Source: an uncultured Gammaproteobacteria bacterium
Lineage (GTDB): Bacteria; Pseudomonadota; Gammaproteobacteria; JABCZS01
NCBI GenBank assembly: GCA_964443025.1
Contig: CAYUEL010000002.1
Location: 2,916 to 66,915 of the forward strand
Length of the DNA stretch: 64,000 nt
Reading direction: 5' to 3'
The position numbers and the translations under genes are program-made. The notes below the pieces were generated by a model. That model made no database searches. It was not told where the DNA came from and saw nothing but the letters and a program-made list of their open reading frames with translations. Position 1 is the first letter of the stretch. Each line of letters opens with the position of its first letter. Positions 4,592 to 30,400 of this stretch are shown here, in pieces.

Positions 4592-6823
4592 TTAATGTTG
4601 ATAAATTTTTGCAAACTGAATTTTTAATAAATGGGCTGTTTCATTCATTAACTTCTCACCAATGGTATCCACGTGACGATTGCGCCAATCACTTAGCTCA
4701 GTTTGCTCAACCCAGCGATTAAATGCACCCATTGCTGGGCCAGTATGAACTTGGTAGTTGATTTTTTCTTCAGCATTTCCAGCTCGCGCAAGTCGAATGG
4801 AATGCATGAAATACCACCTGAAAACCAAAGCCAATTTGTGTTTTGTGTTTTTTTCAGCTTTTTCTATTTGAGAGGGATTGGTACGCAAAAAATATTGCTT
4901 TGTTTCTTCGTAGACCTCTAAAAATGTCTTTCCAAAATATTTTTCTTCGATTTGTTGCCGAGTTGATAAATCAATTGACTCCCAGGATTCATGATGTTGC
5001 CATAAATCATATAACTTATTCGCTCTTCCAGGAAAAAATACGCCCCTTTTCAAGACCTGTACTTTGGCACCTATTTCAAACATATCACCTGCAGGTGCAT
5101 ATTCTGTATCTTGGACATCCATTTTAGAAAGCATTTCTTTAACAACATCACTAGTTCCAGCTTCCACAGTGCATTGGTTAATCGAACCGGTTAAGATGAA
5201 ATCAGCTCCCAGAATAAATGCTGCTGCCGCGGATTCGGGAGTACCAATACCCCCCGCTGCACCCACCCGGACAGATTCTAAATAATGATATTCACGACAA
5301 ATTTTATCTTTCAAACGAATAATTGATGGTAATAAAACCATCATATTTCCCATATCAGTATGGCCGCCAGAATCTGCTTCCACGCAAATATCATCAGCTA
5401 TGGGAACTTGTGCAGCAAGGATGGCTTGTTCTTGTGTAATGTGTCCAGATTGCAAAAGCTCATCAAGCAATTTTGCAGGCGCGGGCCTTAAGAAAACTTC
5501 AGCAACTTCAGGTCTTGAAATTTTAGCCAAAATACGATGCTTAATTAGAACATTGCCGTGGCTATCTTTACTGAGTCCGCTTGCACGGTATTTTACAATC
5601 GCTTGGTTTAATTGGATATATGCAGCTGCTTCTATTTTATCAATCCGATACTTTAGAAATAGATCAATTAATTCAAGTTCAGATTCAACATTATTTAGTT
5701 TACATAAAAGATTCATGCCGAACGAAGATCCTTTGGCGATATTATTCTGAATATATACAATATCCTTTTCAATCAGGTCGATGCTCACGCCACCCGTGCC
5801 ATAATAACTCATCATGGCTGAGTTCGCCATTTTGACAACCATTTCTCTTGATGCGATGCCTTTCGCCATCGCCCCAGCAATATAAGCATAGCGAACATTA
5901 TAGCATTTTTTAAATGATTCCGAACCGAGAGTTTCCCCAGTAATTTTATTTGAATTAGGGTTTTCTTTTTCAATAATTGGCGGCACACTTTGAATTGATT
6001 TCAGCAAATTTGTTAAGACTTTTCCGGGTCCAATTTCTTTAAATTCTACAACCCCCTCTCTTAATAAATACAGGATAGAATCTGTCCATTGCACACAAGA
6101 AGATATTTGTTGGCTCAATAATTGATAAAATGTATTGCCTTGATAAGGTTTCCCAGTCACATTGGAAATTACAGGTATTTTTGGGGTAGAAAATTCTATC
6201 TCTTTAATAAACTCAGCAAATTCTTTCGCCGCAGATTGCATATGCTTAGAGTGAAAAGCTGCACTTACTTTAAGAGGGATATAAATCGCTTTAGCCGCCT
6301 CAAATAAAGTTTTTGCTTGAAAGATTTCATCTTTTTGACCTGAAATCACAATTTGTTCATGGCTGTTATAATTAGCAATATCAATAGAGTTTAATTGATT
6401 ATCTTGTAAGATTTTTTGAATCATATTCATCGGGCATTTAATAACAGCTGCCATCGCACCATTTTGAACTGTACTCATCAGTTCTCCACGTTTCTGAACA
6501 ATTTTAAGAGCCGTTTTAAAATCAACAACATCTGCAAGATGTAGTGCATTATACTCACCCAAACTATGCCCAATAAGGTAATCAACTTTACCTGGGTGTG
6601 TATTGCTATATTCAAGATAATGTAAGTAATTCACTATAAATAAGGCAACCTGTGTATATTTTGTCAGATGAAGTTGGTCGTAAGGATCATTCAAACAAAG
6701 TTCTTTGATTGAGTATTTTAATACCTCATCAGCTTCTTTTGTGACCTCATTAAAAGAATCAAATAAATCCCCCCCCATACCCTTTTGTTGAGATCCTTGA
6801 CCTGGAAACATATAAGCTTTCAT
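4592..6823 (-). CDS. Trans-acting acyltransferase fused to trans-enoyl reductase (AT-ER didomain, PksE-like)
   Basis: N-terminal FabD-like AT (FPGQGSQ, GHSLGEY, AAFHS). C-terminal FMN-dependent FabK/nitronate-monooxygenase-like ER (GAMAKGIAS, GTGGVSIDL). ATG at 6821-6823 with GGAG 8 nt upstream. Confidence 0.85.
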   Translation of the reverse strand: MKAYMFPGQGSQQKGMGGDLFDSFNEVTKEADEVLKYSIKELCLNDPYDQLHLTKYTQVALFIVNYLHYLEYSNTHPGKVDYLIGHSLGEYNALHLADVVDFKTALKIVQKRGELMSTVQNGAMAAVIKCPMNMIQKILQDNQLNSIDIANYNSHEQIVISGQKDEIFQAKTLFEAAKAIYIPLKVSAAFHSKHMQSAAKEFAEFIKEIEFSTPKIPVISNVTGKPYQGNTFYQLLSQQISSCVQWTDSILYLLREGVVEFKEIGPGKVLTNLLKSIQSVPPIIEKENPNSNKITGETLGSESFKKCYNVRYAYIAGAMAKGIASREMVVKMANSAMMSYYGTGGVSIDLIEKDIVYIQNNIAKGSSFGMNLLCKLNNVESELELIDLFLKYRIDKIEAAAYIQLNQAIVKYRASGLSKDSHGNVLIKHRILAKISRPEVAEVFLRPAPAKLLDELLQSGHITQEQAILAAQVPIADDICVEADSGGHTDMGNMMVLLPSIIRLKDKICREYHYLESVRVGAAGGIGTPESAAAAFILGADFILTGSINQCTVEAGTSDVVKEMLSKMDVQDTEYAPAGDMFEIGAKVQVLKRGVFFPGRANKLYDLWQHHESWESIDLSTRQQIEEKYFGKTFLEVYEETKQYFLRTNPSQIEKAEKNTKHKLALVFRWYFMHSIRLARAGNAEEKINYQVHTGPAMGAFNRWVEQTELSDWRNRHVDTIGEKLMNETAHLLKIQFAKIYQH

Positions 6824-6839: not shown

Positions 6840-9800
6840 TTAAACGTATTCAGTAGCAATTTTATATTTAACGGGTGATTCTTGCATATACAGTGCATGA
6901 CAAACCTGTGCAATTTGTGTTAGTATTTCTTCATTCTTAAAGAATGAAAAATGATCCTCTGCTTCTGTTTTATGAATATGCAGGTCTGGAATGACATTCT
7001 TCCATCTCTCTAAACAATTATTTCCTTTATAAAACTTATTTTGTAATGATACGTATTTATTCAAGAATAAACGATCTTGAAAATATTGATTTTTATGTTT
7101 TCTTCTAAAATAATGAAAAGATAAACAATCGGAATTTTCCAATGGTTTAATAATATGGTTTTCCATCGATCTGCTATTTGCGGAAAGAATTTCTTGGTGC
7201 ACACTCAAAATGCTTTTTAACTGTTTTTTTGAATAAGGTATTTTAAATTTGATACAAAAATCAACAAGAGTGTCTAAGTCAATTTCCAAATCCTCTGTCG
7301 CTAGCGGGGCCAGATCAATTTCAGCCAAATTAACGGTTTGAATTTGGCTTAGCATGTCGAATATGATAAGCAAGTAATACATATTTTTAGTCATATAAGT
7401 AGTAATTGGGGAAAATGGAGCATCTACCATTATAATACTTTGCACACGCCTTCCTGCTTTCATTAAATACCTTGCCACTTCATGCGCAATCACTCCCCCT
7501 TGCGAATATCCAGCTAAATGAAATGATGGGTCATCAAAATTATCCATTAATAGTGAGGCATAAATATGGGACATTTCTTCAATATTCGAGCAAGGGGTTA
7601 AATCCTCCTCCTTAACAAGGGAATGCATCGCGTAAAACGAAATTTCATCTTTCATTAACTGAGCTATTGGCTGATAGACTTGCGTGGTTCCAAACGCAGC
7701 ATGAAACCAAAATGTTTTAATATCCTTCGTTCCCTTTTTCAAAAGTTGGAAACTGTTTCTTTTAAATTTATTTTTTTTCATGCTAATTTTTTTATTTTTA
7801 TTTAAAAAAATAGCTTTGTATTTTTCAAACACAAATTGAGAGAGCTGATGAATTGTTGTGTGCTCTAAAAATACCGAGGGTTCTAAATGTATCAATGGAT
7901 ATTGGTTTAAAATTGCGTGTGCAAGTCCGGTGAGGGTAATGGAATCAAATCCATATTCACTTAGGTGTTTATAGATATCGATTTCTTCAGGCTCAATTTG
8001 AAGAATTTCCGCGACTATTTTCTCCAAACCTTCTTGGAATTTTACAAGATGATATTCATCCTGATCTGCAGTCAATGCCTTTAAATTCTTTTTAATATAT
8101 TGAGAATCCCAATCAAGAATTAAAGGATTGCTGCGATGCAATAAAGCTTGCTCGTATTCATTTTGATCAATTTCAGATGCAAGGAGTAAATTACTTAGCA
8201 CGTCATCGCTTAAAGCAGCTAATATCCTATATTTAACCAATTTTAGCTGGTCATCATTTGCATCCGTTTTAATATATGATTTTTTTGAAAATTCTTCCAG
8301 CATCGCTTCTGCCTGAGGATAAGTATGAAACCCCCTAAGGCGATGTATCATTGGAAACGCAGGATAATTTAATAATTTCCAGAATTTTTTGAATTCCTTT
8401 CTTGGATCGGGGAACAACCCAAGCCTGATGCCAAACAGCACACTCGATATGGGCGCCATAATCAAGTAATGTGCATCAGTAATTCGCGAATTTATTTCTT
8501 CATTGGTTAATAACAATTTTCCAGACAACATTTGCGAATACCATCTTGCAATCATTTCCATATAGTAAAATGATCCCGTATAAGCAATTGGGAGAACAGA
8601 TGTATTCACCAAAGTAAAATTATTTTTATAGAATATCCCCATTGAGAAATCATCTAGAACTTTTATGTTTTTTAGATAATTAAAGCGTGTATCATCATTT
8701 CCTATGTTTTTATAACCGGTGCAAAACACTATAATATCCACCTCATGCGCCTGTTGCAGCTCATCTTCAAACATGCACCCTGAAGAATAAAACGCTGCAA
8801 TGTCATTTTTAACTGTAATTTTCTTTTCAGCAACTTTTTTAACTACATGATCATTAATGTGCACTATTGGATTTAATGAAAACTCTTCAAATGTCGGCAG
8901 TATCCCGGAGTTTTCATATATTTTGAAATACTCGGGCATTGATTGGCGCAGTCTTTCGATGATATTGGTTCTATTTTCTTCAACCAATAAACTTGCCGGT
9001 GATTGGCAATCATTGGGCACAAAACCAACCATTCTGGGTAAAATTAACTTATTGGATCGCCTACTCCAAAATACTTCTTTTGCTACCTCACTCGCTTCAT
9101 CTGCAATATCCATTGCGCTCACGCCATTACCAATCACCAGAACACGCTTATTTTCAAATAATTTATTATTATAATATTCTCCTGAATGCATTATCTTGCC
9201 TTTAAATTCATTTAGACCTTGTTTTTCTGGAACATAAGGATCGGTAAAACTTCCTTGGCACATGGCCACACCATCATATATTTTTTTAATTTCTTGACCA
9301 TTGTGAGAAACAACCACTTCCCATTTTCTATTTTTTTCCTCTACCGAAATAACTTTACTGTTAAGCGTGATATGCGAGTTTAAATTATATTCTTTGGAAT
9401 ATAAGTTTAAATATTCCATCACCTCATTAACCGTATAAAAATTACTTTTAATTTTTTCAGGGTAAAAATCGGAGAATACGCTTGTAAAACGTGAGCTTTG
9501 AAATTTTGTATTTTGATAGGCGCCATTCTTTTTTTCTGCACTGTTATTAAGCGCCCACAGTCCACCGATGGTTCCTTTTTCTTCGTAGACATCTGGGCAA
9601 TGACCTTCTTCTAATAGTGATTTTGCCATGACCAAGCCTGCGGGACCAGCCCCAATGATGCAAATATTGAGTTTTTTATTTGACTCTTGTGAATTGTTCA
9701 CTCCTGGAAGCGCCCAATATTCTTTTAAATTAAATGGCATTTTTGGCAACGAAACCCGATAAGGTTTTTCACCTTGCTGATCCCTTACCCAACTTAGGTC

Positions 9801-11558
9801 TTGACCACCAACCCAAACCTTTGCTTTTTCTTCGATTGTTTGTGATAAAAATTGTGTTTTATGGATAGAATCCACGGCTTTGCCATGACCTTTTCCTTTG
9901 AAGATTTTAGGATTTTTTAATTCATGATTTAAATATTGGTTCATATTGCTGATTAATTCTTCAATGGTTTTCGCAATGAATGCAACTCTATATTCAAATG
10001 AATTTCTGCCCACCTGCAAAGTGAATTCTAAATCATCCATACGAACTGTATGATGTGGCAAATAATCAATCAGATCCTTCACCCAGCGATCAACCTGCTC
10101 TTCCGTGGGCGCCGATAATACAATAAGCCTATCTTTGGTTAGAGTCTGTACGCTTCGATCTCGACTTAAATATTCTTCTATCAATAAATGTGCATTATTA
10201 CCTCCTGAGCCATAGGAGTGTAAACCTGCTAATCGAGGTTCATTTTTTTTATTCCAGGCAAAAGAAGTTTTTAATAACTCACAAGGCATGCCTTCTACAT
10301 TGAGATGCGGATTGAGTTGATCAAGATTAATAATCGGATGGATGGTATTCGTGTGAAAACTTCTGATAATTTTTAATAATGCCCCGAGTGAAGATACACA
10401 CTCAATATGCACCATCATCGGCTTGAGTGTGCTGATTTTGCAATAACCAGGGGTGTAAGAAACCTCTGACTCCTGATACATTTGTTTCAGTGCAGTATTC
10501 AACGATTCCCACTCCACAAGATCTGCAACAGGGTTACCCATCCCCTGGGCCTCAATATATTCAATTTTTCGAATATCCGCGCCTGCATAACATTGCTTAA
10601 TCACCTCGACATGACTTTCTTTATGAGGTGCAGCAATTGAGCTTCCCCCTCGACCGTTATAGTTAATTGCAGCATTTTTTATGATGGCATAGATATGATT
10701 GTGATCACGTTCTGCCTCCGATCGTTTTTTTAACACGACAGTGATGACACCTTCGGCACGAACATACCCATCTGCATTTTCTCCAAATGAGAGTACCGTA
10801 TTTTTTGTACTAAGCACATTCAATTTTGATAAACCCACCAATACTTGAGGATTGAGAATGATTCGTGCCCCAGAAACCACTGCCATTTCAATTTCATTGC
10901 GATCTAAAGCTTGTTTAGCATAATAAATCGCTGTAGCAGTACTTGAGCACATGGTATTAATAATTTGTGAAGGGCCACGAAAATCAAAAAAATACGAAAT
11001 GCGATTAGCAGCCATGCTTGGGTGATGATTTAAACCGTTTAAACCTAAATCAATCTGGTGAGTTTTAAGCGCTTCTAAATATTCATTATCTTCTATGCCA
11101 ACGTATACACCAATTTTCTTTCCGCGTAAATTTTGAGAAGCATAACCGGCATCTTCTATCGCTTGATATGCAGACATTAGTAACAATTTGTGTTGAGGAT
11201 CCATAACCTTTGCTTCTGCAGGAAGAATTCCAAAAAACGCGGGGTCAAACATTTTGATAGAAGGAATAAACCCACCCCACTTGGTTCGCATTTTCGTCAA
11301 ATCATTTTTATCTGCGGAATAATACAAGGACCAATCAAAACGACTTTGGGGAATTTCTGTAATGACTGGTTTATCTAAATCTAAATGTTTCCAAAACTCT
11401 TCGACGTTCATCGCACCTGGTAAATAAGCACTGATGCCAACAATCGCAATACCGGTTTCATCCGATTTGACTGAACGGGTCTGTTTTTTTGCAACAAGAT
11501 CTTGCTGATAAGCCTCAAGTTTTTTTCTATAAATTTGTGCTAATTCATGTTGGTTCAC
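6840..11558 (-). CDS. Trans-AT PKS terminal module: KS0 - flavin monooxygenase (Ox) - ACP - thioesterase
   Basis: The KS keeps the active-site Cys (NTMCSST), but the HGTGT His is lost (EAQGMGN), so it is probably non-elongating. An FMO domain follows with GAGPAG and the FxGxxxHxxxY motif (FKGKIMHSGEYY), then a second Rossmann fold (VLVIGNGVSAMD). ACP (EYGFDSITLTG) and TE (GYSQGG) complete the module. GTG start is 4 nt after the LLM stop. Confidence 0.85.
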   Translation of the reverse strand: MNQHELAQIYRKKLEAYQQDLVAKKQTRSVKSDETGIAIVGISAYLPGAMNVEEFWKHLDLDKPVITEIPQSRFDWSLYYSADKNDLTKMRTKWGGFIPSIKMFDPAFFGILPAEAKVMDPQHKLLLMSAYQAIEDAGYASQNLRGKKIGVYVGIEDNEYLEALKTHQIDLGLNGLNHHPSMAANRISYFFDFRGPSQIINTMCSSTATAIYYAKQALDRNEIEMAVVSGARIILNPQVLVGLSKLNVLSTKNTVLSFGENADGYVRAEGVITVVLKKRSEAERDHNHIYAIIKNAAINYNGRGGSSIAAPHKESHVEVIKQCYAGADIRKIEYIEAQGMGNPVADLVEWESLNTALKQMYQESEVSYTPGYCKISTLKPMMVHIECVSSLGALLKIIRSFHTNTIHPIINLDQLNPHLNVEGMPCELLKTSFAWNKKNEPRLAGLHSYGSGGNNAHLLIEEYLSRDRSVQTLTKDRLIVLSAPTEEQVDRWVKDLIDYLPHHTVRMDDLEFTLQVGRNSFEYRVAFIAKTIEELISNMNQYLNHELKNPKIFKGKGHGKAVDSIHKTQFLSQTIEEKAKVWVGGQDLSWVRDQQGEKPYRVSLPKMPFNLKEYWALPGVNNSQESNKKLNICIIGAGPAGLVMAKSLLEEGHCPDVYEEKGTIGGLWALNNSAEKKNGAYQNTKFQSSRFTSVFSDFYPEKIKSNFYTVNEVMEYLNLYSKEYNLNSHITLNSKVISVEEKNRKWEVVVSHNGQEIKKIYDGVAMCQGSFTDPYVPEKQGLNEFKGKIMHSGEYYNNKLFENKRVLVIGNGVSAMDIADEASEVAKEVFWSRRSNKLILPRMVGFVPNDCQSPASLLVEENRTNIIERLRQSMPEYFKIYENSGILPTFEEFSLNPIVHINDHVVKKVAEKKITVKNDIAAFYSSGCMFEDELQQAHEVDIIVFCTGYKNIGNDDTRFNYLKNIKVLDDFSMGIFYKNNFTLVNTSVLPIAYTGSFYYMEMIARWYSQMLSGKLLLTNEEINSRITDAHYLIMAPISSVLFGIRLGLFPDPRKEFKKFWKLLNYPAFPMIHRLRGFHTYPQAEAMLEEFSKKSYIKTDANDDQLKLVKYRILAALSDDVLSNLLLASEIDQNEYEQALLHRSNPLILDWDSQYIKKNLKALTADQDEYHLVKFQEGLEKIVAEILQIEPEEIDIYKHLSEYGFDSITLTGLAHAILNQYPLIHLEPSVFLEHTTIHQLSQFVFEKYKAIFLNKNKKISMKKNKFKRNSFQLLKKGTKDIKTFWFHAAFGTTQVYQPIAQLMKDEISFYAMHSLVKEEDLTPCSNIEEMSHIYASLLMDNFDDPSFHLAGYSQGGVIAHEVARYLMKAGRRVQSIIMVDAPFSPITTYMTKNMYYLLIIFDMLSQIQTVNLAEIDLAPLATEDLEIDLDTLVDFCIKFKIPYSKKQLKSILSVHQEILSANSRSMENHIIKPLENSDCLSFHYFRRKHKNQYFQDRLFLNKYVSLQNKFYKGNNCLERWKNVIPDLHIHKTEAEDHFSFFKNEEILTQIAQVCHALYMQESPVKYKIATEYV
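7100..7830 (-). other. Thioesterase domain (approximate bounds)
   Basis: GYSQGG nucleophile elbow is encoded near 7495-7515 on the minus strand. The surrounding sequence fits an alpha/beta-hydrolase context. Confidence 0.5.
8700..9690 (-). other. In-line flavin-containing monooxygenase (BVMO-like Ox) domain of terminal PKS module (approximate bounds)
   Basis: Reverse-strand translation gives LNICIIGAGPAGL around 9600-9680, FKGKIMHSGEYY, and ends near IVFCTGYK around 8700. Confidence 0.6.
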
Positions 11559-11562
11559 GTGC

Positions 11563-12657
11563 TCACCTATATCTTTCTTTAAGCAATTGAAGATAAGATA
11601 ACGATTCTATAACTAATGAATAATCGACTCCAAAATCTAATAAGCATGCAATTTCATTAACGCCTACGCTGATAGCCTGATCAACCACCTGCTTGACCTC
11701 CGAAACAGGTCCAAATAAAGCACCGGTTTTTGAATAACGTTCAAATGAATATTCCACAATTTTATCAATTTCTTTTTCGCTGGGTTTTTCACCTTCTTTC
11801 ATCCCTTGAATATGGCCTGTTAATGCACTTTTAATGTATTGTGAAAAAGGTTCTCTGACGGCATGTTCAACCAACGATGCATTTTCATGAACTAAAGTGT
11901 GAAGCATTAAGGTGACAATGCCTGTTGCAGGATCAAAGCCGTGTTCAGCGCGCGCGTTGCGATAGATGGCAATTTTTCGACCAAGTTCTTGCAGATCAAT
12001 GCCTTGCAGCATCGTGAGCACATGATAACCACATTTACCAGCTTCATAAAAACTTTCGTCTAATTTTGTGACGACGAGCCAAATAGTGATTTCTGGTTGT
12101 AACGGCTCAGGGTAAGTGCGTACAGAAATCGATTTTTGATTCCCATTGATAAATGTGCAAGATTCACCACGCCACAATTGTTTTACCATTGCAATGCGTT
12201 CATGCCAGATTTCTCTTCTTTTAGAAAAATTTTCAGGGCAACTAATAAAATCGTTAGGATTCCACCCGCTCGCAAAACCTAAATCAACGCGACCATTTGA
12301 TAAATTATCTACTATAGACCACGTTTCCACTACTTCAGTGGGGTGATGCAAAGGCAATACAACAGAACCCGATCTCAAACGAATATGTTTAGTTTGCACC
12401 GCAAGCGCAGCGGCCAATGTGACAGGGCTTGGATAAATCCCCCCAAAAGGATGAAAATGTCTTTCAGGTAACCACACTGCTGTAAATTTATGCTGATCAG
12501 CAAATTGCGCAACGTCTAATACAAGTTGATATTTTTTCTTTGGATTTTGAGTTGCATCTGAAAAAAATATAAAACTAAAGTCAATACTGTTTTCCTTTTT
12601 ATTAAGTGATAACAAATCAGTTAATTTATTATTGCTTTCACTATATGACGTGTTCAT
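11563..12657 (-). CDS. Luciferase-like (flavin/F420-dependent) monooxygenase
   Basis: LLM fold starts at FSFIFFSD. The ORF opens at 12711, but the likely start is an internal ATG (MNTSYSE) near 12657. It overlaps the 3' end of the upstream PKS gene by a few codons. Confidence 0.75.
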   Translation of the reverse strand: MNTSYSESNNKLTDLLSLNKKENSIDFSFIFFSDATQNPKKKYQLVLDVAQFADQHKFTAVWLPERHFHPFGGIYPSPVTLAAALAVQTKHIRLRSGSVVLPLHHPTEVVETWSIVDNLSNGRVDLGFASGWNPNDFISCPENFSKRREIWHERIAMVKQLWRGESCTFINGNQKSISVRTYPEPLQPEITIWLVVTKLDESFYEAGKCGYHVLTMLQGIDLQELGRKIAIYRNARAEHGFDPATGIVTLMLHTLVHENASLVEHAVREPFSQYIKSALTGHIQGMKEGEKPSEKEIDKIVEYSFERYSKTGALFGPVSEVKQVVDQAISVGVNEIACLLDFGVDYSLVIESLSYLQLLKERYR

Positions 12658-15600
12658 TGTTTCTCCGTTTAGCAATGTATTTTGCAAACTTCTCAACAGT
12701 TGGATGTTCAATCAGCCAGCCGGGTTTAATTTCCATTCCGAGCAATCTCTCCAACGACAGACTTAATTGTGTTCCCGTAATAGAATCTAAACCATAATCC
12801 TGAAATGATTCATGAATCGATATATCCATTTCATTAATTTTAAGAACTTTTGCTAATTCAGTGGATATTTGATTGATCACATCACTATCATGAACGAAAT
12901 CCTGATGATGCACAACACTTTCTATTATATCTTTATTATTCAACTGCAATGAATCTCCTAACTTAATTATTTGATCATCACTTAAAGAAGGTATTTCAAG
13001 TTTGGCAATGAAAGAATCATAATCGTTAGGATGACTATTTTTCAAACCCTCAATTAGTTCATTAAAGGTTAATGATGAGTCATTTGTTTTAGGGCGAAGC
13101 TTGGATTTTCTGACGTGCATGATTTCAAATTTATTTTCATAAAAGTTTTTTATTTCGATAAAGGTGGGTAAAACGTTCGCTGCATTATACGTTATCGCTG
13201 CATTGAATAGCTGAAGACCTTCAGAGGTATTATTAAATATAAAACCTAAATTATGAGCATAAGCTTCAGAGTTGTTTTTTATAACTAAACTATGTGTATG
13301 ACTTCCCGCATCAGACCAGCCTGTCCAGTAAATATTATAATGTGATTTTTTGCCTCTCTTTCTTTCATACTCAGCAATATGCTCTAAATAAGCATTACCC
13401 ATACCATAATCACTCAAGCCTTTCATAAAACATGGAATCATTCCAGCTGTAGATGAAAAAGTAACAAAAAAGTCGAGATCATCTTTTTTAAACAGTCCCA
13501 TTAAAGTATCTAGCCCTTCTTGCTTGGGAGAAAGTACACGCGAAATGGTATCGATCGATTTTTTAACAAAAGCAACTTCACTTTCACGCATGGCAGCCAT
13601 TGCACCTGCGCTATGAATCACCCCTTTAATTGGAGGTCTTGTATTTCTGATTTGAGTAAAGAAATCATAAGCTGTATTCTGATTTTTAAGATCTCGGGTA
13701 TACAAATCAATTTGGGTTCCCAGGTTTTCAATTAAAATTAAATTTCTCAGCTTATGTTTCAGTTCATTGGGTAACCCTTCCTGATCGACAAGAGATGACC
13801 ATTCATTTCGAGGCGGCAACTCAGAAACGCCCATTAATATCAAATGTTTTGCGCCTAATCGAGCAAAATATTTAGCAAATTCCATTCCGATGCCACTAGT
13901 TCCGCCTGTTATCACATAAGTTGCATGCTGTGAAATAGATATATGGTTATTTAACTGCAAAGCAGTAATTTCCTGCTCTCGCAATATTGGAACATATCTT
14001 ACTTGATTGCGATAGATGATTTCAGACTCTTCTACTTCTTTGGCAACATCCTTTTGAATAATCTCCATGATTGAATTTATATTGATCAGATCGTCATCAA
14101 TATCAATGGTTTTGGCAAAAACATGTGAATATTCAACACTCAACATTTTTACCAGTCCTGTAAATTTTGCTCCAGCGAGATTTATTGAATTAGATTTAAA
14201 TGCTCTTAAATTTCGAGTCAGATGTATAATATAAATTTCAGTAAAATTCGCAATCAGTTTTTGATAGAACAACACTTTATTAATTTTATTTGTATCTGCA
14301 TCCTTATATTCTGAATATAAATCAGATAAATCAATCAAAATTGATGGATTGGTCAATTGCGCTTCTTTGTTTACTAAATCATGATAATGAATACAAGTCA
14401 CTTTCTTATTGAACCGCTTGACCAATTGATCCAGATCAATAATTTTTTCAGTCTGTTCATTAATTAATATAATCGCATCCTCATTCAAATACACGTTTGA
14501 GTTTTTGTTGATACTTTTTTCTACCCAGTCTATTGTTACAAATGACGCTTTGGCTTGGTTTTTCTCTTGTATTTGTCCATATTTAAACCGGCCGTGATCC
14601 TTATATTTGATAAGGTTCATATCCTTCTGCTTTTCTAAACCTTTTATCCATTCATTAAGTAGGATTTTTATTTTCACTTGAGGCGATGTTTCATTATCAA
14701 CTCCAACTACTTTTAACCTGATATTTGAATAAACTAGAGGATAAAAACTTTTCAAGGATGCATCTGATAATTCCGTCATCAAGTAAATATCCAATTTATC
14801 CAGCTGGGTCAATTGGTTCATTAATTGATGGGTTTCTTCCAAACTTACAGAGGATTGTTTCATGATAAAAACTGATCCTGCTGCTTCACCTTGACCCAAC
14901 AAAGACGTTGTCTCACTCCATAAACATGCTTTGAAAGAAAGCCGCACTTGAGCCGCATCAAAAAGCACTGAATTAATATCATTGATCAGGTCACTCAATA
15001 TATTAAATTCCGCGGCATCATAATAAATAAAAATAATATTAGTATTCTGTTTATTTTTTATTTGATTAATCCAATCATTTTCTTGTGGGAGCTCTGAGCT
15101 TATCCACTCTCCACTTATCTGATCGTGTGATACCTTTTGAGGCATGACCGGGACTTTACTGATTTCTATTGGCTTAGTCACCCAATATTTTCCTTTCGAA
15201 AATGGATAGGCAGGCAATGATATTCGTTTTGGTGTAGAAGAATTTTGATAAAGGTTATTCCAATTGATTCTCAACCCCTTGGTCCAAAAGCTAGCCAATT
15301 TATCAAAATTCCGGTTCATTTCCCATTTTTCAATCACCCCTTTCATTTCTGAATCATGATTCAGAAATTCAATATTATCGTCATGTTCATGAACTTGCCC
15401 ACAATAAAGAAATTTAGATTCATCTGCTTTATTTTCAATCCAGTGTTGCAAACCTTGCAGAAGTTGCGGCACTTCATCAATAATCAATGCCAATCGATGC
15501 TTATAAGCCTCTCGCCCTATTTGCAGCGTATATGCTAAATCACTTAATGAGACCGCTTGATTTTCCTTCACGAACTTTAATAATAGTTCTGCGTAGCTTT

Positions 15601-18600
15601 TTAAACTCTCTGGCGTTTTAGCAGATAACACCATCAAGTAAGGACCTTCCGTTATACTTTCTCCTCGCATGTCCACATACTCTTCAACAACTACATGCGC
15701 ATTCGAACCCCCAGCACCAAACGAACTCACACCCGCAACCCGCGGATACTCTATTCCGTTAATCACGGGCCGATTCCAAGATGTAAGCTCTCGTTGCACC
15801 TTAAATGGCGTTGCCGTAAAATCAATATGAGGATTTAATTCTTCAGCATGAATCGATGGCACCAGCTCTTGATGCTGCATTTGCAATAACACTTTAGTCA
15901 CACCCGCAATACCTGCAGCTGATTCGCAATGCCCAATATTCGATTTCGCTGAACCAATTGCACAATATTGCCTTTCCTGCGCCTCTTCATAAGCACGTGT
16001 TAATCCCGCAATTTCAATCGGGTCTCCCAATTGAGTGCCAGTCCCATGTGCTTCAACATAACTTACATGCCGTGGGTTAACTTTTGCTTCTGCTAACGCT
16101 TGTTGAACCACATGCGCTTGTGCGTTAGGATTAGGGACTGTATAACCGTTCGTTTTCCCGCCATGATTAATCGCACTGCCTTTAATCACCGCGTAAATGT
16201 GGTCTCTATCTTCGATCGCAGTAGCTAATGGCTTAAGTACAACACAACCCACCCCTTCACCAGGAATGTAACCATCCCCACCTTTACCAAAACTTTCACA
16301 TCGACCCTGGCTGGAAATAAAATTATTTTGACTGAGTAAAATATATTTATTCGGATGAATGCTAATATTCACACCACCTGCAATCGCCATTTGGCAATGC
16401 CCTGCTTTTAACGCTTGGCAAGCTAAGTGAATGGTCGTAAGTGATGATGAACACATGGTATCCAATGCCATACTAGGACCATTAAAGTCACAGACATAAG
16501 AAACTCGATTAGCAATGCTGGCCGGGTTACCACCCACACCTTGCAACATGGGTGCTCCATATAAAGGGTACTCTTCATACATAACGCCCACATAAACACC
16601 CACATTCCCAGCAATCTTCGAGTTTTTTAAACTCTCACGCGTATAACCACTGTCTTCTAATGCGTGCCAAGCACTTTGTAAAAACAGACGCTCTTGCGGG
16701 TCCATCAACTCCGCTTCACGTGGAGAAATATTAAAAAATAATGGATCAAACTCATCCACCCCTTCAATAAATCCACCCCATTTGCTTTTAATACTGGATT
16801 CATAATCATACATATTCCAATACGTAGGTGGAATCGTGGTAATGCAATTTTTTCCAGTTTTTAAATGATGCCAAAAATCAGATAAAGTCGGCGATTGAGG
16901 ATAGCGTCCACTCAAACCAATGATCGCAATATCCATCGTGGCTGACTTTGAAGCCATTGGAATAAAGCGCGAAGCCTGAGGCAATAATACAGAGTGCATG
17001 ACTTCAAGGCTTTTCACCGGTTGCTGAATATTTAAAATCTGAGTTAACTTAGCATGATGGTGCTTAATTAAATAATCAGAAAGCTCCAGCAAAGTCTGGT
17101 ACTCAAAAAATAATGTCTTGGGTAATACACCAAATTGCTCTTCTAGCACACTGGTTAATTCCAAAATCATCACTGAATCTATCCCATATTGATCTAAAGT
17201 CACATCAGATTTGAGACGATTGATTGGCATTTTTAAGATTACTGCCACTTTTCCTTTCAGGTATTGATCTGTTTTATCTAGCAATTGGGCATCAACGGTG
17301 TCTAGGTTAATCGGCGCATTATCCAGCACGGGCCCTTCATGGAACAACAATTGTTTACGTATTACTTCAGGATTTCCTTGCATTACTAAGCAATGAGAAT
17401 CACTCAATTGCATTACCTGCTCAAATGCAGATAAGCCTATTTCTGTTTCCATAGCGACTAAGCCTGTTTCACGCGTAATCCGCGCAAGACTCGCCGCATC
17501 GATTTGCATACCGCCAGATTTCCATAATGGCCAATCGATTGCAGCCATTCTACCTTGACGCAATCCCTGAGCGGCTAACTGATTATAATCATGTGCATAA
17601 GCGTCTAAAAATGCATTTGCTCCTGCATAATCAGCTTGCCCAAGGCTGCCAAACTGTCCTGCAAGAGAAGAGAATAAAACGATGAAATCAATATTTTCAT
17701 TTTGTAATGCTTTATCAAGATTTAAAACGCCTGTAATTTTAGGTCTTAGCACAGACTCAATTTCTTGATGTTTTTTCTTGAGGATAAATGCATCGCGAAT
17801 TACACCAGCACTATGAAAAACGCCATTGAGGTGACCATACTGTGTTTTAATCGTTTGTACAGTTTCTAAAACCGCAGATAAATCGCTTACATCGCAGCAT
17901 ACATATTCAACCGCCATGCCTTTATTACGCAACATGGATAATATTGTTTTCGCCGATTCATTTAAAGCAGAGCGACCAGATAGAATCAATGTAATATGTG
18001 AAAAAGTGGATAAATAATCAGCAAATATTAACCCCAAGCCGCCTAAACCACCGGTTAACCAATAGACTCCATGTTCTTTAATTACAGATCGTGCGCTCTT
18101 TCTAAAGTGTAATTCTTTAAATTGTTTGATAGAACGCTGACCTTTTGCATCATAGCGCACTTCCACCGCATTATCTGCAACTGTTTTTTCACGATTGATA
18201 ATCTCAACCATTTGCGTTTTATCAGCAATTGATATGAGCTTACCTATGAAATTTGGATTTTCCCGTCTAGCTGTTTTTAATAATCCTGCTAAAGAGGCAT
18301 AATAATGTTCTACTTGATTATCTAATACTAAAAACCAAATGTGCTTTTGGTGCGTCAGCTTTTCTTTTAATATTAATTGTACATGATCAAAAGCTGATAT
18401 AAAACATTGTTCAATCGATGAGCTCGCAATAGTATGTATTGATAATTCAGAGATTTTATCTTTCAATTCCCCAAGAGAATCAAAAAGGACAACCTCGATA
18501 TTGGTTAATGCGTCTTGTATCGCTGGCAATGAAGGTTGCCAAAGCGCTTGCGCAAGCACCAAATCTTCAGGCTCAAGCCTCGATTGAACTGCACGAATAC

Positions 18601-21600
18601 TCAACCCTTTAAGTGCGACACAAACTTGCCCCTGTTCATTGATTAAATCAAAATCATAACGCTGAGTTTCATTTTGACTGCCACTAGATTTTCGCTGTGC
18701 GTGAGCATAAACTTTGTTTGATAATGGGCTTAAGCATTGAATCTCTTCAATTGAATATGGCAAATAAAGTGTCGAATGATTTATTTTTTCAGATCTTAAT
18801 GCAAGAATTGAGTGTAAAGCGGCGTCAACTAAAACAGGATTAAACTCAAAATAACCATTATTTTCTGTGGTACTGATTTCTGATAGTGACTCTTGTTCAT
18901 TAAAAATGACCTTTTGAATTGTTTTAAAAGACTCTCCATAATGAATCCCCATTTTGTGGTATTGCGCATACAATGAATCTGGGGTCAAATTTTTTGTGCA
19001 GCGACTTTCAATCGCAGATAAATCAACAAATTTACTACTTTCAATTGAAGCGAGAATCACGTGGCCCTCGCTAAAAATGAGTCCGGTATTGTCTTTGATC
19101 TCATACACAATTTCATCACTGGATAGTGGATGTAGATGAATCATCACAGTTGTGGATTGAGTGACTCTAATCGGACGTGTCCAAGTAATATTTTTAAAAA
19201 CACCAATTAAGCCAGCAGTTGAGAGTGTCACTGCAGCACGCGCCATTTCGATATGACAGACACCCGGCAACACTGGAGTTGTGTTAATCACATGGTCACG
19301 CAAAAATAATTCATGACTGTAAAATGTAGTTTCAAAGGCTTGGCTAGCCAGTGTTGAAATATTTTTATCGATAAGAGGATGTAATTTTTGAACATCTTTT
19401 TCATGCTTGACGCCGTCAACCCAATAACGCTCTTTAGCAAATGGATAAGTTGGCAAAGAAATTCTCTTTGGCATTGGTGTTGATGTGTAAAGCTGCTTCC
19501 ATTCGATAGGATAACCTTGAACCCATAATTCTGATAATTTTTCAAACTTTCTTTTACCAACCCAGATATTTACCAATTGAGAAAAGTCTTCATCTTGACC
19601 TAATAAATCCATGGATGGATTAAATTGTAAAGTATTCCCAAAATAATAATGTTGTATTGAGGTATGCTGATCTTCTGCAATTTTTTGCAAATGATCGCAA
19701 AACGTTTTATGATCATAGGTGAGGAAAGCCATTCGATATTCCATGGCCTCTCGCCCTATTTGCAGCGTATATGCTAAATCACTTAATGAGACCGCTTGAT
19801 TTTCCTTCACGAACTTTAATAATAGTTCTGCGTAGCTTTTTAAACTCTCTGGCGTTTTAGCAGATAACACCATCAAGTAAGGACCTTCCGTTATACTTTC
19901 TCCTCGCATGTCCACATACTCTTCAACAACTACATGCGCATTCGAACCCCCAGCACCAAACGAACTCACACCCGCAACCCGCGGATACTCTATTCCGTTA
20001 ATCACGGGCCGATTCCAAGATGTAAGCTCTCGTTGCACCTTAAATGGCGTTGCCGTAAAATCAATATGAGGATTTAATTCTTCAGCATGAATCGATGGCA
20101 CCAGCTCTTGATGCTGCATTTGCAATAACACTTTAGTCACACCCGCAATACCTGCAGCTGATTCGCAATGCCCAATATTCGATTTCGCTGAACCAATTGC
20201 ACAATATTGCCTTTCCTGCGCCTCTTCATAAGCACGTGTTAATCCCGCAATTTCAATCGGGTCTCCCAATTGAGTGCCAGTCCCATGTGCTTCAACATAA
20301 CTTACATGCCGTGGGTTAACTTTTGCTTCTGCTAACGCTTGTTGAACCACATGCGCTTGTGCGTTAGGATTAGGGACTGTATAACCGTTCGTTTTCCCGC
20401 CATGATTAATCGCACTGCCTTTAATCACCGCGTAAATGTGGTCTCTATCTTCGATCGCAGTAGCTAATGGCTTAAGTACAACACAACCCACCCCTTCACC
20501 AGGAATGTAACCATCCCCACCTTTACCAAAACTTTCACATCGACCCTGGCTGGAAATAAAATTATTTTGACTGAGTAAAATATATTTATTCGGATGAATG
20601 CTAATATTCACACCACCTGCAATCGCCATTTGGCAATGCCCTGCTTTTAACGCTTGGCAAGCTAAGTGAATGGTCGTAAGTGATGATGAACACATGGTAT
20701 CCAATGCCATACTAGGACCATTAAAGTCACAGACATAAGAAACTCGATTAGCAATGCTGGCCGGGTTACCACCCACACCTTGCAACATGGGTGCTCCATA
20801 TAAAGGGTACTCTTCATACATAACGCCCACATAAACACCCACATTCCCAGCAATCTTCGAGTTTTTTAAACTCTCACGCGTATAACCACTGTCTTCTAAT
20901 GCGTGCCAAGCACTTTGTAAAAACAGACGCTCTTGCGGGTCCATCAACTCCGCTTCACGTGGAGAAATATTAAAAAATAATGGATCAAACTCATCCACCC
21001 CTTCAATAAATCCACCCCATTTGCTTTTAATACTGGATTCATAATCATACATATTCCAATACGTAGGTGGAATCGTGGTAATGCAATTTTTTCCAGTTTT
21101 TAAATGATGCCAAAAATCAGATAAAGTCGGCGATTGAGGATAGCGTCCACTCAAACCAATGATCGCAATATCCATCGTGGCTGACTTTGAAGCCATTGGA
21201 ATAAAGCGCGAAGCCTGAGGCAATAATACAGAGTGCATGACTTCAAGGCTTTTCACCGGTTGCTGAATATTTAAAATCTGAGTTAACTTAGCATGATGGT
21301 GCTTAATTAAATAATCAGAAAGCTCCAGCAAAGTCTGGTACTCAAAAAATAATGTCTTGGGTAATACACCAAATTGCTCTTCTAGCATGCCTGTCAACTT
21401 CAGAACCATAATAGAATCAATGCCAAGATTTTCCATCTTTGCATTTTCATTGATTTTTTCTAATTTAATTTTTAAGCTCTCTGCAAGACTCCTTTTTAAA
21501 TAACTCACTGTGTATTTTTTTAACTCAAAATCATTCGTTTGCGAATGTTGTTGAATAGGTTCAGATATCAAGTTTTGCACGGGGGGATGATGCTTGAATT

Positions 21601-24600
21601 CAGAAAGATTTGAAATCCAATACGATTCTTTTGCAAAAGCATAAGTGGGTAGGGACATCCTGTATGGCTTGTGCTCAGAATAAAATTGCTCCCAAGGAAT
21701 TGTATGGCCTTGGCACCACAGCTTTCCAATTTCTTGCTCAGATAAGGAAAACAAATCAGATTGAATTTGATTTGATTCATGTTCTATTTCATTAACAGCA
21801 GCTTTATTTAAATCAGCTATCAATCCATCAATATTTTTGGCATAAAATACGGCGCGATATTCATAATGATCCCTTCCCACCTGCAAGGTATAAGCAAGAT
21901 TTTTTAATTGAATTTCAGTTTTATGTTGACTTAAAAATTGTTGTAATTGATGAATCGATTCAATGGCTTGTTCTTTAGTTTTAGCCGAAACAGGAACAAT
22001 ATGTATTTTATCTTCTACTTTATTCTCTAAGGCTACATTTTCAATATATTCTTCAAGCACAATGTGTGCGTTAACTCCACCAAAACCAAAACTACTTACT
22101 CCAGCGCGCCGAGGCCATTCTTTGCCTTCTTTTGTTTTTATCCTCTTCCAAGGCTGGGTTTTCTGGATGAGGTAAAAAGGAGATTGCTCTAACTGAATAT
22201 ATTCATTTACCTGCTCGCTGTATAAACTTTTTGGCAATGTTTGATACTTCATTGCCAGCAACACTTTGATAAGACCCGCCACGCCTGCAGCCAATTCCAA
22301 ATGACCAATATTGGTTTTTACAGAACCCAAGCCACAATAAGGGTGAGATTCAACACTCTGTTGCTCTTGAGATAGTTCTGAAAACGCTTTTTTAAGACCA
22401 TTGATCTCGACCGGATCGCCAATTGGTGTTCCCGTTCCATGTGTTTCAATGTATGTAATGGAGTTGATAGGTACTTTAGCAGCTCGGTAAGCCTGTTTGA
22501 TTAATTCTGCTTGCGCATTGGCATTGGGCGCTGTGAGTGAATTTGCTCGACCTCCATGATTTTCAGCACTAGCCTTAATAACTGCATAAATATGATCATG
22601 GTCTTTTTCTGCTAAATCAAGGCGTTTCAGTAATAATATCCCGACACCCTCGCCCCTCACATATCCATCCGCATTGCTAGAAAATGTTTTACACTTTCCT
22701 TCTGGGCTTAACATGCCTGCTTTTGCAAAGCTTAGATGCGCTTCACTGGATAAAAGTGTATTGACACCACCTACAATCGCATATTGGCATAAACCACTTT
22801 TTATCGATTCAACACCTCGGTGAATAGCTACCAATGAACTTGAGCACGCTGTTTCGATGGGTTCACTTGGGCCATGCAGATTCAAAAAATAGGAAATTCG
22901 GCTACTGCCGATCGATGGAGTGATTGCAGAAGCAGTGTATCCTTCAACAGGCACATGATTAAAAACACGTTGTTGATAGCCTGTTGAAGCGGTTCCAATA
23001 AAAACGCTAGTTTGTGAGCCCCACAAAGATTTTAAAGCATAACCTGCATCATAAACTGCAGCACATGCAAACTGCATGAGTAATCGTTGCTGAGGGTCCA
23101 TGTATTCCGCCTCAGCGGGTGAAATACCGAAAAATGCCGGATCAAATTCATGAACACAGTCAATAAACCCGCCTTTTTTAAATTTTTCATCTATAGAAAT
23201 AAAATCAATTCGATCAGAAGGTGCCTTCGTGATGCAGTCAAATTCTTGTATTAAATTTTGCCAAAACTCAGCGACATTACTTGCGCGCGGGAATGTTCCA
23301 CTAATTCCGATAATAGCAACATCTGCTGGTGAGAAATCTTGTTCAATTTCAACTGGTAATTTTTCTACATCTACAACATGAGTTGGCAAACGATCGTCTT
23401 TAATTTGTGTCATCAAATAATCTCTAAAATTATTTAATGTGGGATATTCAAAGAAAATGGTCGGCATAATATTTAGTGAATACTGTTGATTAACCACATT
23501 CGCAAGTTCAGTCAGCGTAATTGAGTCCATGCCAAACGCACTAACTTCCTCATCAAAGAAAATATCCTTCTCAGAAACATTTAAAATTTTACACGTTGAA
23601 GTGGTTAGGAACTGTTGGATTGACTGCTTAGAATCAAGTGATGAAGTTTCAGCTCGCTTATTTACGAGTTCTCTTGTTGTAAATGACTGAATTACGCAAC
23701 ACACATTACCCTCTTGACCGCATATCAGAATATCATATTTTTTAACAGTCCCCGAAGATTCAGGGGATAATTTTGTATAAATAAATCCATGCTCTGGAAT
23801 TTTTGTTAATTGATGAATTTTAGTTACTGCAAAAGGCAAACTTGGACTAGGATTTTCTAGAGTCAATTTTGCATTTAAGCCTATGATGCTTTGAAACGCA
23901 GCATCCATCACACTAGGGTGGATTACAAAAGTATTTTGTGTCTCAGAGGGTGGTAAATGAAATTCAGCCAAACTTTCGTTTCCATTCACCCAAAATTCTG
24001 TAATACATTTGAAATGTTTACCATAATGAATCTGCTGATCAGAAAACATTTGATAGATTTTTTCGTGTGCCAGGGTAAAACGAGAGTCTTGCTTTAATTG
24101 ATTTATGTTGACCTTTTCTTCACCATGAGTTTGATTCAAAAACTCAATAAAACCTGTTGCATTGATTTTTTTCGGCGTATCGCGACAAGCGACTTCAAAG
24201 AAATATTTCCCTTCTTTAAGATGTAAACGAATATCCACCGCAACAGAATCATCCAAACAGACAATAGGCGCAAGAAACACTAAGTGGTTAATGCTAAAAG
24301 AAGAATCAGGTTGAATGCCACGTGCAGCATGGCTTGCAAGATCAATATAAGCTGCACCAGGCAGCATTTTTTTTTGATCAATAATATGCTCTGCCAAAAT
24401 AAATTCATTCTGATGAAAATAACCTTGGTAGTGATAACGATCCAGCTGTGACACGTGAGACGTCAAGGTAAACCTTTGTGGTTCATTTATTTCATCACTC
24501 ATCCAACAGCGCTCGCCTGCAAATGGATATACAGGTAATGAGATAAAGGTTGCGCCGTCATGTTTAATTTGGTTTTTCCAATCGACCGCCTTGCCATTGA

Positions 24601-27466: not shown

Positions 27467-30400
27467 TTAATCCCCCATTTTTTCTAAGATCATATGGCTA
27501 TTGGTTCCACCAAAACCAAATGAAGAAACTGCTGCAATAGTGCGATTCACTCGCGATTTCCATTCTTCTGTCGAGACAATTGGATAAAATGGGCTTTTAT
27601 CAAAATTAAATCGTGGATGAGGGCTTTCACAATGAATCGTCGGAGGTATCATATTGTGCTCCATGCTCAGTAAAATTTTGATAATACTTGCAACCCCTGC
27701 AGCCATCATGGTATGTCCAATATTTGATTTCACTGAACCGATCGCACAAAACTGATTTTTTGATGTGTAATTGCGATAAACATCCGATGCTGCTTTGACC
27801 TCAATTGGATCGCCTAAAAGCGTACCTGTTCCATGTGCCTCATAATAACTAATTTGTTCAGGATTAATGTTTGCGAGAGACAACGCACGATGAATGACTT
27901 CTTTTTGACCTTCTTGATTTGGCACTGTTAAGCCCATTGTTTTACCATCATTGTTAATCGCAGAAGCCAATATCGTGGCAATAATCCGATCACCGTCGCG
28001 AATCGCTGCATTATAGTTTTTTAGCAAAACTAAACCCGCACCTTCTGAAAGTACAAATCCGTTTGCACGTTTATCAAAGACGTATGATTTCCCATCTGGA
28101 GAAAGTACATTGGCATTATTAAATCCAATATGCGCAAATGGATCAATCAACAAAAAGATACCGCCAGCAATGGCTAATTCACTTTCTCCATGCAAAATCG
28201 ATTGACATGCATCATGCATCGCAACTAATGAAGAGGAACATGCTGTATCAATAGTTTTTGACGCACCTCTTAAATTATAGAAATTTGAAATACGTGCAGC
28301 AATAATATTCCCAATATAGCTCACAATCGTATTTTTAATCACATTTTTTGGAATTTCCTTATAATTATTTCTAACATAATTATTTTCTTTTGCGCCAATA
28401 TAAACAACTGTATTAGTATCCTTTATTTTATCAATGTACCCTGCGCGCTTTAATAAATCATCTGCAAGCTCTAATAGGACACGTTGCTGCGGATCAAGGA
28501 TTAGCGCATTGGAATCATCAATAGCAAAACGTTCCGCATCAAAGCTTGAAATATCATTCAGATAACCACCGTAGGTAATATGTTTATCTTCCACACTAAA
28601 TTTTCCCCAACGATCTGTTGGCGGATTGGTAATCAGATCTCTCCCAGTAGTTAAATTTACCCAAAAATCTTCAAGGGTAGGTGATTGAGGCAGAATTCCG
28701 GTGTAGCCAATAATCGCAACTTTATTTTGCGATGCATGATTACTGGTTTTAACTGTAATCGATTCAAAATTATTTTCTGTTGTTTGCTCAACCCCTGCTG
28801 AATTAATTAAATATTCAGACAATTGATTGATCGTAGGATGCATGATAATAGAATTGGGATCCATAATGATCTGGTATTTCTTTTCTAGTTCATTTAATAA
28901 TCGCATCATTAAAATTGAATCAATTCCATATTCTGAAAAATTATCGTTAAAATCAAGTTGTGACGCATCTATTTTTAGCATGTGGGAAATGATTTCTAAT
29001 ACTTCGGTTCGAATTTTATTTTGATCGTTTTTGACGATTAAACCAGAAGTTTGATTGGCAGAAGGTTGTTTATCCACCGCAATATTAAAGTACTGAGCAA
29101 TTTTATCCATTACTCCATAAGCCACCATAATCTGACCTGATTGATTCAACGTCAATATTCCATGCAATATCTCCAAACCCAGCTTAGATCGCAGCACCGA
29201 CAGCCCCGTTCGACGTAGCTGCCAGTCTTCATGATGCGGCTCAAGCGTCATCCCACCTTCCGCCCATAATGGCCAATTAATTGCAATGGTTCTACCCGAA
29301 CGCTTTCCCTTTGCAACTAAATGATCTCGATATTCAACATACCCATCCAAATATGCATTTGCCGCAGCGTAATCGACCTGCCCAATGTTACCCTTGATAG
29401 AGGCTACAGAAGAAAAAAGAACAACAAAATTTAGAGCAATATCTTTAGTATAAGTATCAAGCCAATGAAGCCCTAGTAGTTTGGGTGAAAGAACATCTTC
29501 AAATTCAGAGACAGTTTTATTGATCAATAATGAATCCTTTAGCACACCCGCGCAATGAAATATTCCTGATAGAGAATCATGGTTTTTCATAATTGAGTCA
29601 ATTAAATTCTGAACCTCATCCGCTCGAGTGATATCACATTTCTCATAGATGACATGCGCGCCATGCAGAATTAAAGAGCTCATCCATTGTTGATCGTCGA
29701 TGGCGGGCGCTTTGCGTCCACATAAAATAATTTTTGTATTTTTAAACTGTGAAATGTATTCTGCAACCTTTTTCCCAAGGCCACCCAGCCCTCCCGTAAT
29801 CAAAAACACTCGATTTGAAAATAAATCAGTGCGCAAATGTGCACTTGCATACCGATTCAAAGTCTGAACCCAGCGTGCATGATTCTCATCATATCGTACA
29901 AATTGATGCTGAGAATTCTGTTGCATTTCATTACGAAGCGTTTCAGCTGCAATGCTGGGATTTGTTAAGATCGCCTGATCCAGCGCAATCAGCTTAGTTT
30001 TTATTTTAGGATTTTCAATCTGCATGCTTTTTATTAAGCCGGCTAAAGGTGCATAAAGATGAATATTTTGATTGGGAACGACAATCGCACACACCATCTG
30101 ATGAGTTTTTTGTGACAATTTTTCTTTCAAATAATTAAATATTGCGGTCACTATTTCTATGGGAGCCTTCGCCTGGTTTATGTTAAAGTAAAACTCTTTG
30201 CAGGAATTTTGAAGCTGATTTACAAGTGCAGCTAATGAATCCTGCTGAAAATTAATAAATAAATATTCGCTTGTTTCTTGTTGATTTTTAAGATCCGAAT
30301 TTGAAGGAATTTCCCTTTCCCACTTTGCCATTGCCAAAACGACATCGTAATGAGACTCATTATTTTTTTCATTTTGTTCATCTAGAAATTTTACCCCTAA

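Follow-up and report, generated by a model that had tools for sequence, protein, structure and literature searches.

Two neighbouring modules of a trans-acyltransferase (trans-AT) polyketide synthase (PKS) from an uncultured gammaproteobacterium share a 1642-nucleotide (nt) segment without a single difference, and we consider it likely that this identity arose by very recent non-reciprocal recombination between old paralogues, whether as gene conversion or as a double exchange of equal effect between sister copies. The gene concerned, PKS-B, lies within 64,000 nt of contig CAYUEL010000002.1 (GenBank assembly GCA_964443025.1, positions 2,916 to 66,915 of the forward strand; GTDB lineage JABCZS01), hereafter the window, and the paralogues belong to its modules 8 and 9. 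One 1642-nt segment, comprising the C-terminal half of an acyl carrier protein (ACP), a complete ketosynthase (KS), and part of the flank behind it, appears to have been overwritten by its counterpart from the neighbouring module. No module was added, since both modules are older than the event. An earlier interpretation made from the letters alone (the sequence-only reading) had headlined the repeat as a very recent duplication of a KS module. That proposal gave way because only 1642 of the 4239 nt in one module period are alike, the edges of the alike portion are abrupt, and related clusters carry both modules with diverged KSs, whereas gene conversion between adjacent modules, offered at the time as an alternative, fits the evidence.

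Exact matching and domain mapping placed copy A, which is upstream in the protein, at 19746-21387 (minus strand), where it covers the C-terminal half of ACP7, the linker, KS8, and 113 amino acids (aa) of flank; copy B, downstream in the protein, occupies 15507-17148 (minus strand) and covers the C-terminal half of ACP8, the linker, KS9, and again 113 aa of flank. The copies were identical at 1642 of 1642 nt, and the maximal exact run at an offset of 4239 nt had precisely these ends, as the sequence-only reading had recorded. The offset is 3 x 1413, so both copies share a reading frame, and it equals the length of one KS-dehydratase (DH)-ketoreductase (KR)-ACP module. Third codon positions were the same in both copies at 546 of 546 sites, and the many silent differences that a full alignment might have revealed were absent. 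In protein terms the repeat spans aa 2027-2574 and aa 3440-3987, from LEEQFGVLPKTLFFEY through AYTLQIGREA; domain mapping bore out the earlier description of half an ACP plus an entire KS, each copy holding the last 26 ACP residues, a 45-aa ACP-KS linker, the whole KS, and the first 113 aa of the flanking subdomain behind it. A copy starts 11 codons past the ACP serine of GIDS and stops ~100 aa short of LPTYPF. The KS cores, located by Pfam and by motif alignment (KS8, aa 2099-2461, 20084-21172, minus strand) or exact identity (KS9, aa 3512-3874, 15845-16933, minus strand), have the same sequence, and motif alignment showed the Cys/His/His catalytic residues to be intact in both (DTMCSSS, HGTGT, KSNIGH).

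Other pairs among the ten KS domains of the cluster were 44-59% identical in nt and 29-51% in aa. Self-BLAST of the whole window returned no second pair above 80%, the next best pair within the synthase genes reaching 66% over 626 nt, and at a per-site identity of 52% the probability of such a match by chance is ~10^-466. Nivina et al. (2021) define a duplicated or gene-converted region as >500 bp at >80% DNA identity within the same PKS cluster; at 1642 nt and 100% identity, the two copies are the sole pair of this kind in the window.

The tract is sharply bounded on both sides. At its 5' edge (in gene sense) identity climbs from paralogue level (roughly 50-65% nt) and reaches 100% in the space of a few bases, and at its 3' edge it falls back to ~50% nt directly past ...GGGCGAGAGGC. 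Outside the tract, the N-terminal halves of ACP7 and ACP8 share 17 of 50 residues, while the remainder of the linker is 31% and the KR 25% identical in aa between modules 8 and 9, in agreement with the earlier observation that the intervening DH-KR and the sequence after the second copy differ. Over the remaining 2597 nt of the 4239-nt period, identity at the offset was 20-35% nt, and 25-31% aa where the sequences could be aligned. These unique parts consist of the ACP7 N-terminal half (21388-21502, minus strand; domain map and edge alignment), the 2597-nt spacer between the copies (17149-19745, minus strand; Pfam), which holds the rest of the KS8 flanking subdomain (LPTYPF), DH8, KR8, and the ACP8 N-terminal half including the GIDS serine, and the region past copy B (12644-15506, minus strand; Pfam), with the rest of the KS9 flanking subdomain, ~300 aa without a family match, KR9, and ACP9. 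Both edges adjoin motifs kept in all members of the cluster family. The first edge falls between YGIDSVM...LT.. and the motif LE(E/K)xFGxLPKTLFFEYQT of ACP helix II/III, and the second directly follows the post-KS motif LAYTLQxGREA.

To place the two modules in time, we drew on related clusters. A protein search with the product of a neighbouring gene, KS0-flavin monooxygenase (FMO)-ACP-thioesterase (TE), returned four homologues at 43-46% identity, and three contigs were compared, namely L032 (GCA_050294515.1, JBNKOF010000002.1), L033 (Logan ERR12725704), and L034 (Logan SRR31444215). All three share with the window the synteny of a big PKS, a luciferase-like monooxygenase (LLM), and KS0-FMO-ACP-TE, and in each the big PKS closes with ACP-KS-DH-KR-ACP-KS-(unassigned gap)-KR-ACP, in which every domain of modules 8 and 9 has its counterpart, including a DH-KR orthologous to that in the spacer of the window. 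Since L032, L033, and L034 all carry both modules, the two-module architecture is ancestral to the cluster family; a one-copy allele, as envisaged by the sequence-only reading, was not seen among these three, which do not include closer strains. Within the relative clusters, the counterparts of KS8 and KS9 have diverged to 62-66% nt identity over the whole tract-equivalent, 65-72% nt and 68-81% aa over the KS core, 32-38% aa over the ACP C-terminal half plus linker, and 51-54% aa over the post-KS flank, and the third positions of conserved codons are saturated at 42-50%. The tract of the window is itself 61-66% nt identical to the orthologous KS regions of these clusters.

All eight KSs, from the window and the relatives, formed one clade apart from the remaining window KSs (48% aa to KS3, 42% to KS7). 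Since the eight group together, both positions have long been held by the same KS type. The L032 pair, with 81% aa identity in the core, was sister in 100% of neighbour-joining bootstraps, and the L034 pair had 77% core identity (partial sequence), both above the between-cluster identity of 63-70%; the L033 pair, at 68%, gave no sign of homogenisation. Paralogues were closer to each other than to orthologues, then, for the window pair and for the KS cores of L032 and L034 (partial), and not for L033, which hints at an older homogenisation of the same KS pair in L032 and L034. Megablast against a plasmid collection gave no match to the locus, the best matches to the DH-KR spacer were 34% in a genome collection and 38% in a protein database, and a metagenome scan with the tract gave 58% at best.

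Other origins of the repeat were weighed against these results. A very recent tandem duplication of the whole KS-DH-KR-ACP module, after which the rest of one copy diverged or was replaced, would account for an in-frame offset of one module length, and module duplication is the textbook route of cis-AT PKS evolution (PMC7930024). The whole 4239-nt unit should then match, however, and 2597 nt of it do not; since all third positions in the tract are unchanged, divergence cannot explain the unlike rest of the unit. Because, in addition, the three relatives have both modules with the same domain orders and none has one fewer, we consider tandem duplication highly improbable. It is hardly credible that purifying or convergent selection keeps two same-substrate KSs identical: although both KSs fall in one clade in four clusters and the KS cores of the relatives retain 68-81% aa identity, selection acts on protein, yet synonymous sites are identical here too and are saturated in the same pair of the relatives. 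An assembly or polishing artefact, in which two similar but non-identical KS regions were merged into a single consensus that was then used twice, or in which a repeat led to a wrong join of the contig, is in our estimate unlikely. Perfect identity over 1.6 kb is a typical outcome of repeat collapse or of short-read polishing of a long-read assembly, apparent trans-AT module duplications or swaps may be misassemblies (Helfrich et al., PMC7930024), and the bryostatin cluster was misassembled across exact repeats (PMC5484115). On the other hand, all four junctions run into unique sequence in frame, the open reading frame (ORF) of 4941 aa is intact, and the two-module order is the same in three independent relatives, a conserved architecture that makes assembly collapse or expansion less likely. 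Moreover, collapse needs near-identical copies, and pairs at 62-72% nt, as in the relatives, would not collapse; an artefact could lift an identity of roughly 97-99% to 100% and is unlikely to create the repeat.

The tract was also compared with GRINS (genetic repeats marked by intense nucleotide skew), which spread by gene conversion, preferentially from one PKS module to another (Nivina et al., 2021; PMC8256042), so that membership would be a sub-variant of gene conversion and not exclusive of it. GC and TA skews were computed as mean absolute values in 150-nt windows with a step of 30, with a threshold of >0.15 for each. Length and identity of the tract are those of a GRINS, and its mean absolute GC skew of 0.210 exceeds that of any other 1642-nt stretch of the PKS genes (background 0.122 +/- 0.026, maximum 0.186). 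At third positions, where GRINS skews are strongest (PMC8256042), GC skew was +0.41, compared with a background of 0.11 +/- 0.09 and with -0.08 to +0.16 in the relatives' orthologous regions. In contrast, mean absolute TA skew was 0.097, short of 0.15 and equal to the background (0.099 +/- 0.015), GC and TA skews were uncorrelated (r = +0.03, p = 0.83, against r of about 0.7 in typical GRINS), and GRINS are rare in trans-AT PKSs and in proteobacteria (PMC8256042). We rejected membership on the TA skew, and a GRINS origin is accordingly rated as decidedly unlikely. The excess of G over C at third positions of the tract is real and has no counterpart in the relatives. A broader variant, in which KS8/KS9 is a recurrent hotspot of homogenisation, the tract an early-stage GRINS-like element, and the population possibly polymorphic for module number (Δ4239/+4239; congeners ± one C2H2), seems to us rather unlikely; if true, it would place such events in a setting, a trans-AT cluster of a low-GC proteobacterium, where they are thought to be rare.

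Recent gene conversion would have changed an arrangement up-R'-mid-R-down into up-R-mid-R-down, for which non-reciprocal copying of ~1.6 kb is the simplest single event. The exchange would have started and ended in short conserved islands, the ACP helix II/III motif and the post-KS motif, such sites being where short nucleotide identity would be on offer. When the paralogues of the relatives are aligned in register, exact runs reach at most 17-26 nt, and initiation from short homology is therefore conceivable. Since exact runs of this length are near the lower limit for RecA-type exchange, the conversion event must presumably have been rare. The same net outcome would follow if an unequal exchange in the ACPs had first produced a duplication and a deletion in the linkers had come after it. 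Assuming 10^-6 to 10^-8 substitutions per site per year, zero differences over 1642 sites would set a 95% upper bound on the age of the event at roughly 10^3 to 10^5 years.

Several points weigh against gene conversion. The perfect identity could in part be an effect of consensus or polishing. Had the pair, before the event, been no more alike than its counterparts in the relatives (62-72% nt identity), recombination of the RecA type would have had a very low efficiency, and the mechanism is not straightforward. The nearest comparable clusters share just 61-66% nt with the tract, and no pre-conversion state from the same species or genus is among them. Donor and recipient are indistinct as well, since the ACP N-terminal halves and post-tract linkers of outside homologues match both flanks of the window equally, and the diagnostic columns taken from the relatives for direction gave 0/2 under strict and a biased 12:21 under relaxed scoring.

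We also asked what the overwrite would mean for the product. The nearest homologues from outside the family (55-58% aa) have DH-KR-ACP directly upstream in 4 of 4 cases with context, and the best PDB match is the KS after DH-KR-ACP of 7zma/7zmc. Judged by these homologues and the PDB match, the KS may be of the type that follows DH-KR-ACP, which fits the KS9 position. KS8 (copy A) and its orthologues, however, follow an ACP that in the window is that of the reduction-free module KS7-ACP7. The context of the outside homologues had suggested a mismatch between KS8 and its upstream KS-ACP module, an idea that was dropped, as a single KS type occupies both positions in all three relatives; since the relatives carry this type at the KS8 position too, conversion would have made no new mismatch. 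As both KSs are of one type in every relative, the effect of the overwrite on the product was probably slight or nil.

The repeat may also bear on the stability of the locus. When recombination between the copies was simulated, 4239 nt were lost and an intact ORF of 3528 aa remained, lacking exactly the KS flank, DH8, KR8, and ACP8, so that the sequence-only reading was right to see in the repeat a substrate for the exact deletion of one module. Recombination across 1.6-kb direct repeats 2.6 kb apart would delete module 8 in frame or duplicate it, shortening or lengthening the polyketide by one olefinic C2 unit. Loss or gain of one module by recombination makes chain-length variants of the product plausible, and a locus of this kind would be hard to assemble and to clone.

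Earlier work has already documented homogenisation of PKS modules, with perfect tracts as well as exact repeats in trans-AT clusters among the known cases, and the known picture is unchanged by our results. Of 203 characterised assembly-line PKS clusters, 93% have regions of >80% identity, which have been ascribed to gene conversion (PMC8256042). The tract resembles these regions in exceeding 500 bp and 80% identity, in that paralogues are closer than orthologues, and in that KS and ACP are among the affected domains, a pattern read as non-reciprocal homogenisation (Nivina et al., 2021; PMC8256042). Most described conversions, however, come from cis-AT clusters of Streptomyces at 75-95% identity, whereas here identity is 100%, the cluster is trans-AT with low GC (38%), and the unit is half an ACP plus a KS, with no AT. 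Modules 2, 6, and 7 of the cinnamomycin (cmm) PKS likewise contain a conversion region of 100% nt identity within non-identical modules, with edges at conserved motifs (PMC12391348). The cmm regions, which are cis-AT, begin at the KS C-terminus, take in the AT, and reach the post-AT linker, and they changed the extender unit, whereas the tract described here contains no AT and no change in chemistry is predicted. For trans-AT PKSs, recombination sites have been placed behind KS domains and the module boundary redefined (Helfrich et al., 2021; PMC7930024). In keeping with that work, the 3' edge of the tract falls after the KS in the flanking subdomain and the unit joins the KS to the preceding ACP; in contrast to it, the edge lies at AYTLQxGREA, ~100 aa before LPTYPF, the unit has no upstream processing domains, and the 5' edge cuts the ACP.

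Another likeness is to the trans-AT PKS for bryostatin (bry) in 'Candidatus Endobugula sertula' (PMC5484115), which is gammaproteobacterium-like, low in GC, and has long, nearly exact intragenic repeats; these destabilised clones by homologous recombination and confused assemblers (PMC5484115). The bry repeats differ in being multiple and in covering larger module blocks, and domain content and accessory genes differ as well. The bry cluster is not known to have FMO, LLM, or methionine aminopeptidase (MetAP) genes. Extreme KS homogeneity between modules is also a feature of the mycolactone PKS of Mycobacterium ulcerans (pMUM), where modules are lost through recombination between repeats, so that the product is altered or no longer made; that PKS is cis-AT and its homogeneity extends over about 16 modules, versus one pair here.

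If the reading as gene conversion holds, the tract would be a clean case of natural editing of a modular synthase gene, caught before any mutation accrued. Its edges, in the middle of the ACP (11 codons past the serine) and at the post-KS AYTLQxGREA, would mark a naturally tolerated splice unit, the ACP C-terminal half plus KS, in a trans-AT system, and sites of this kind are sought in PKS engineering.

The window as a whole contains a trans-AT polyketide cluster of 38% G+C. PKS-B (12641-27466, minus strand; 4941 aa), taken from the ORF list and mapped with Pfam both in full length and as ten overlapping pieces, reads DH-ACP5, KS6-DH-ACP6, KS7-ACP7, KS8-DH-KR-ACP8, KS9-(~300 aa unassigned)-KR-ACP9. 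Pfam also assigned PKS-A (27467-39799; KS1-ACP-KS2-KR-ACP-KS3-ACP-KS4-KR-ACP-KS5), PKS-C (6840-11558, minus strand; KS0-FMO-ACP-TE), and the LLM gene (11563-12711, minus strand). The modules are AT-less, Acyl_transf_1 being absent from PKS-A, PKS-B, and PKS-C by Pfam, and free-standing genes encode an AT-enoylreductase (ER) (4592-6823) and an AT (41911-42873). A vestigial KS-AT linker follows the KSs, with RhiE-like and CurL-like linker matches behind every KS, and the best PDB matches are trans-AT KSs. Further accessory genes encode a phosphopantetheinyl transferase (PPTase), an HMG-CoA-synthase cassette, two P450s, two MetAPs, and an ABC transporter.

At its end the cluster has an in-line flavin monooxygenase before the thioesterase (KS0-FMO-ACP-TE), beside the LLM gene. 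At least three further clusters, all uncharacterised, keep this arrangement at 43-46% identity, and a literature search found no described product. Among the KSs, KS10 is without the first catalytic His, and in KS1, at the start of PKS-A (38597-39748, minus strand), the active-site Cys is replaced by Ser (DTASSS); PKS-A shows no loading domain upstream of KS1. The stretch of ~300 aa that separates KR9 from the KS9 flanking subdomain (window ~14267-15181, minus strand; PKS-B aa ~4096-4400) gave no Pfam match at E<=10, a four-sequence profile against the PDB found nothing, and a single-sequence AlphaFold model was unusable (predicted local distance difference test score 34). A gap of similar size lies at the same place in L032, L033, and L034, but with only 20-25% identity. 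Alone among the carrier domains, ACP9 (12644-12871 region; PKS-B aa 4866-4931) has a Trp in the region of the helix II-III loop (KPGWLIEHPT), the site at which beta-branching ACPs bear the 'Trp flag', yet module 9 contains a KR; for ACP7, no confident assignment of this beta-branching flag could be made.

The two MetAP (Peptidase_M24) genes of the cluster, at 39808-40653 and 52990-53844 (both minus strand), are 67% nt identical, and in a related locus, L035, an M24 gene (5064-5867) directly follows the KS0-FMO-ACP-TE gene. A literature search found nothing specific on a cluster type combining trans-AT PKS and MetAP. These genes may serve as self-resistance, which would point to MetAP as the target of the product. 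Between the P450 genes and a MetAP gene lies a gene (49682-52894, minus strand) for a 1070-aa protein whose only family match is to the poly(A) polymerase/nucleotidyltransferase head domain. The cluster is flanked by an ArdA antirestriction gene (57122-57646, minus strand) and a gene for a TraD/TrwB-type coupling protein (59425-61275, plus strand), the latter matching TraD of Legionella and Vibrio plasmids at just 31%; together, ArdA and the coupling protein suggest the context of a conjugative plasmid or an integrative element.

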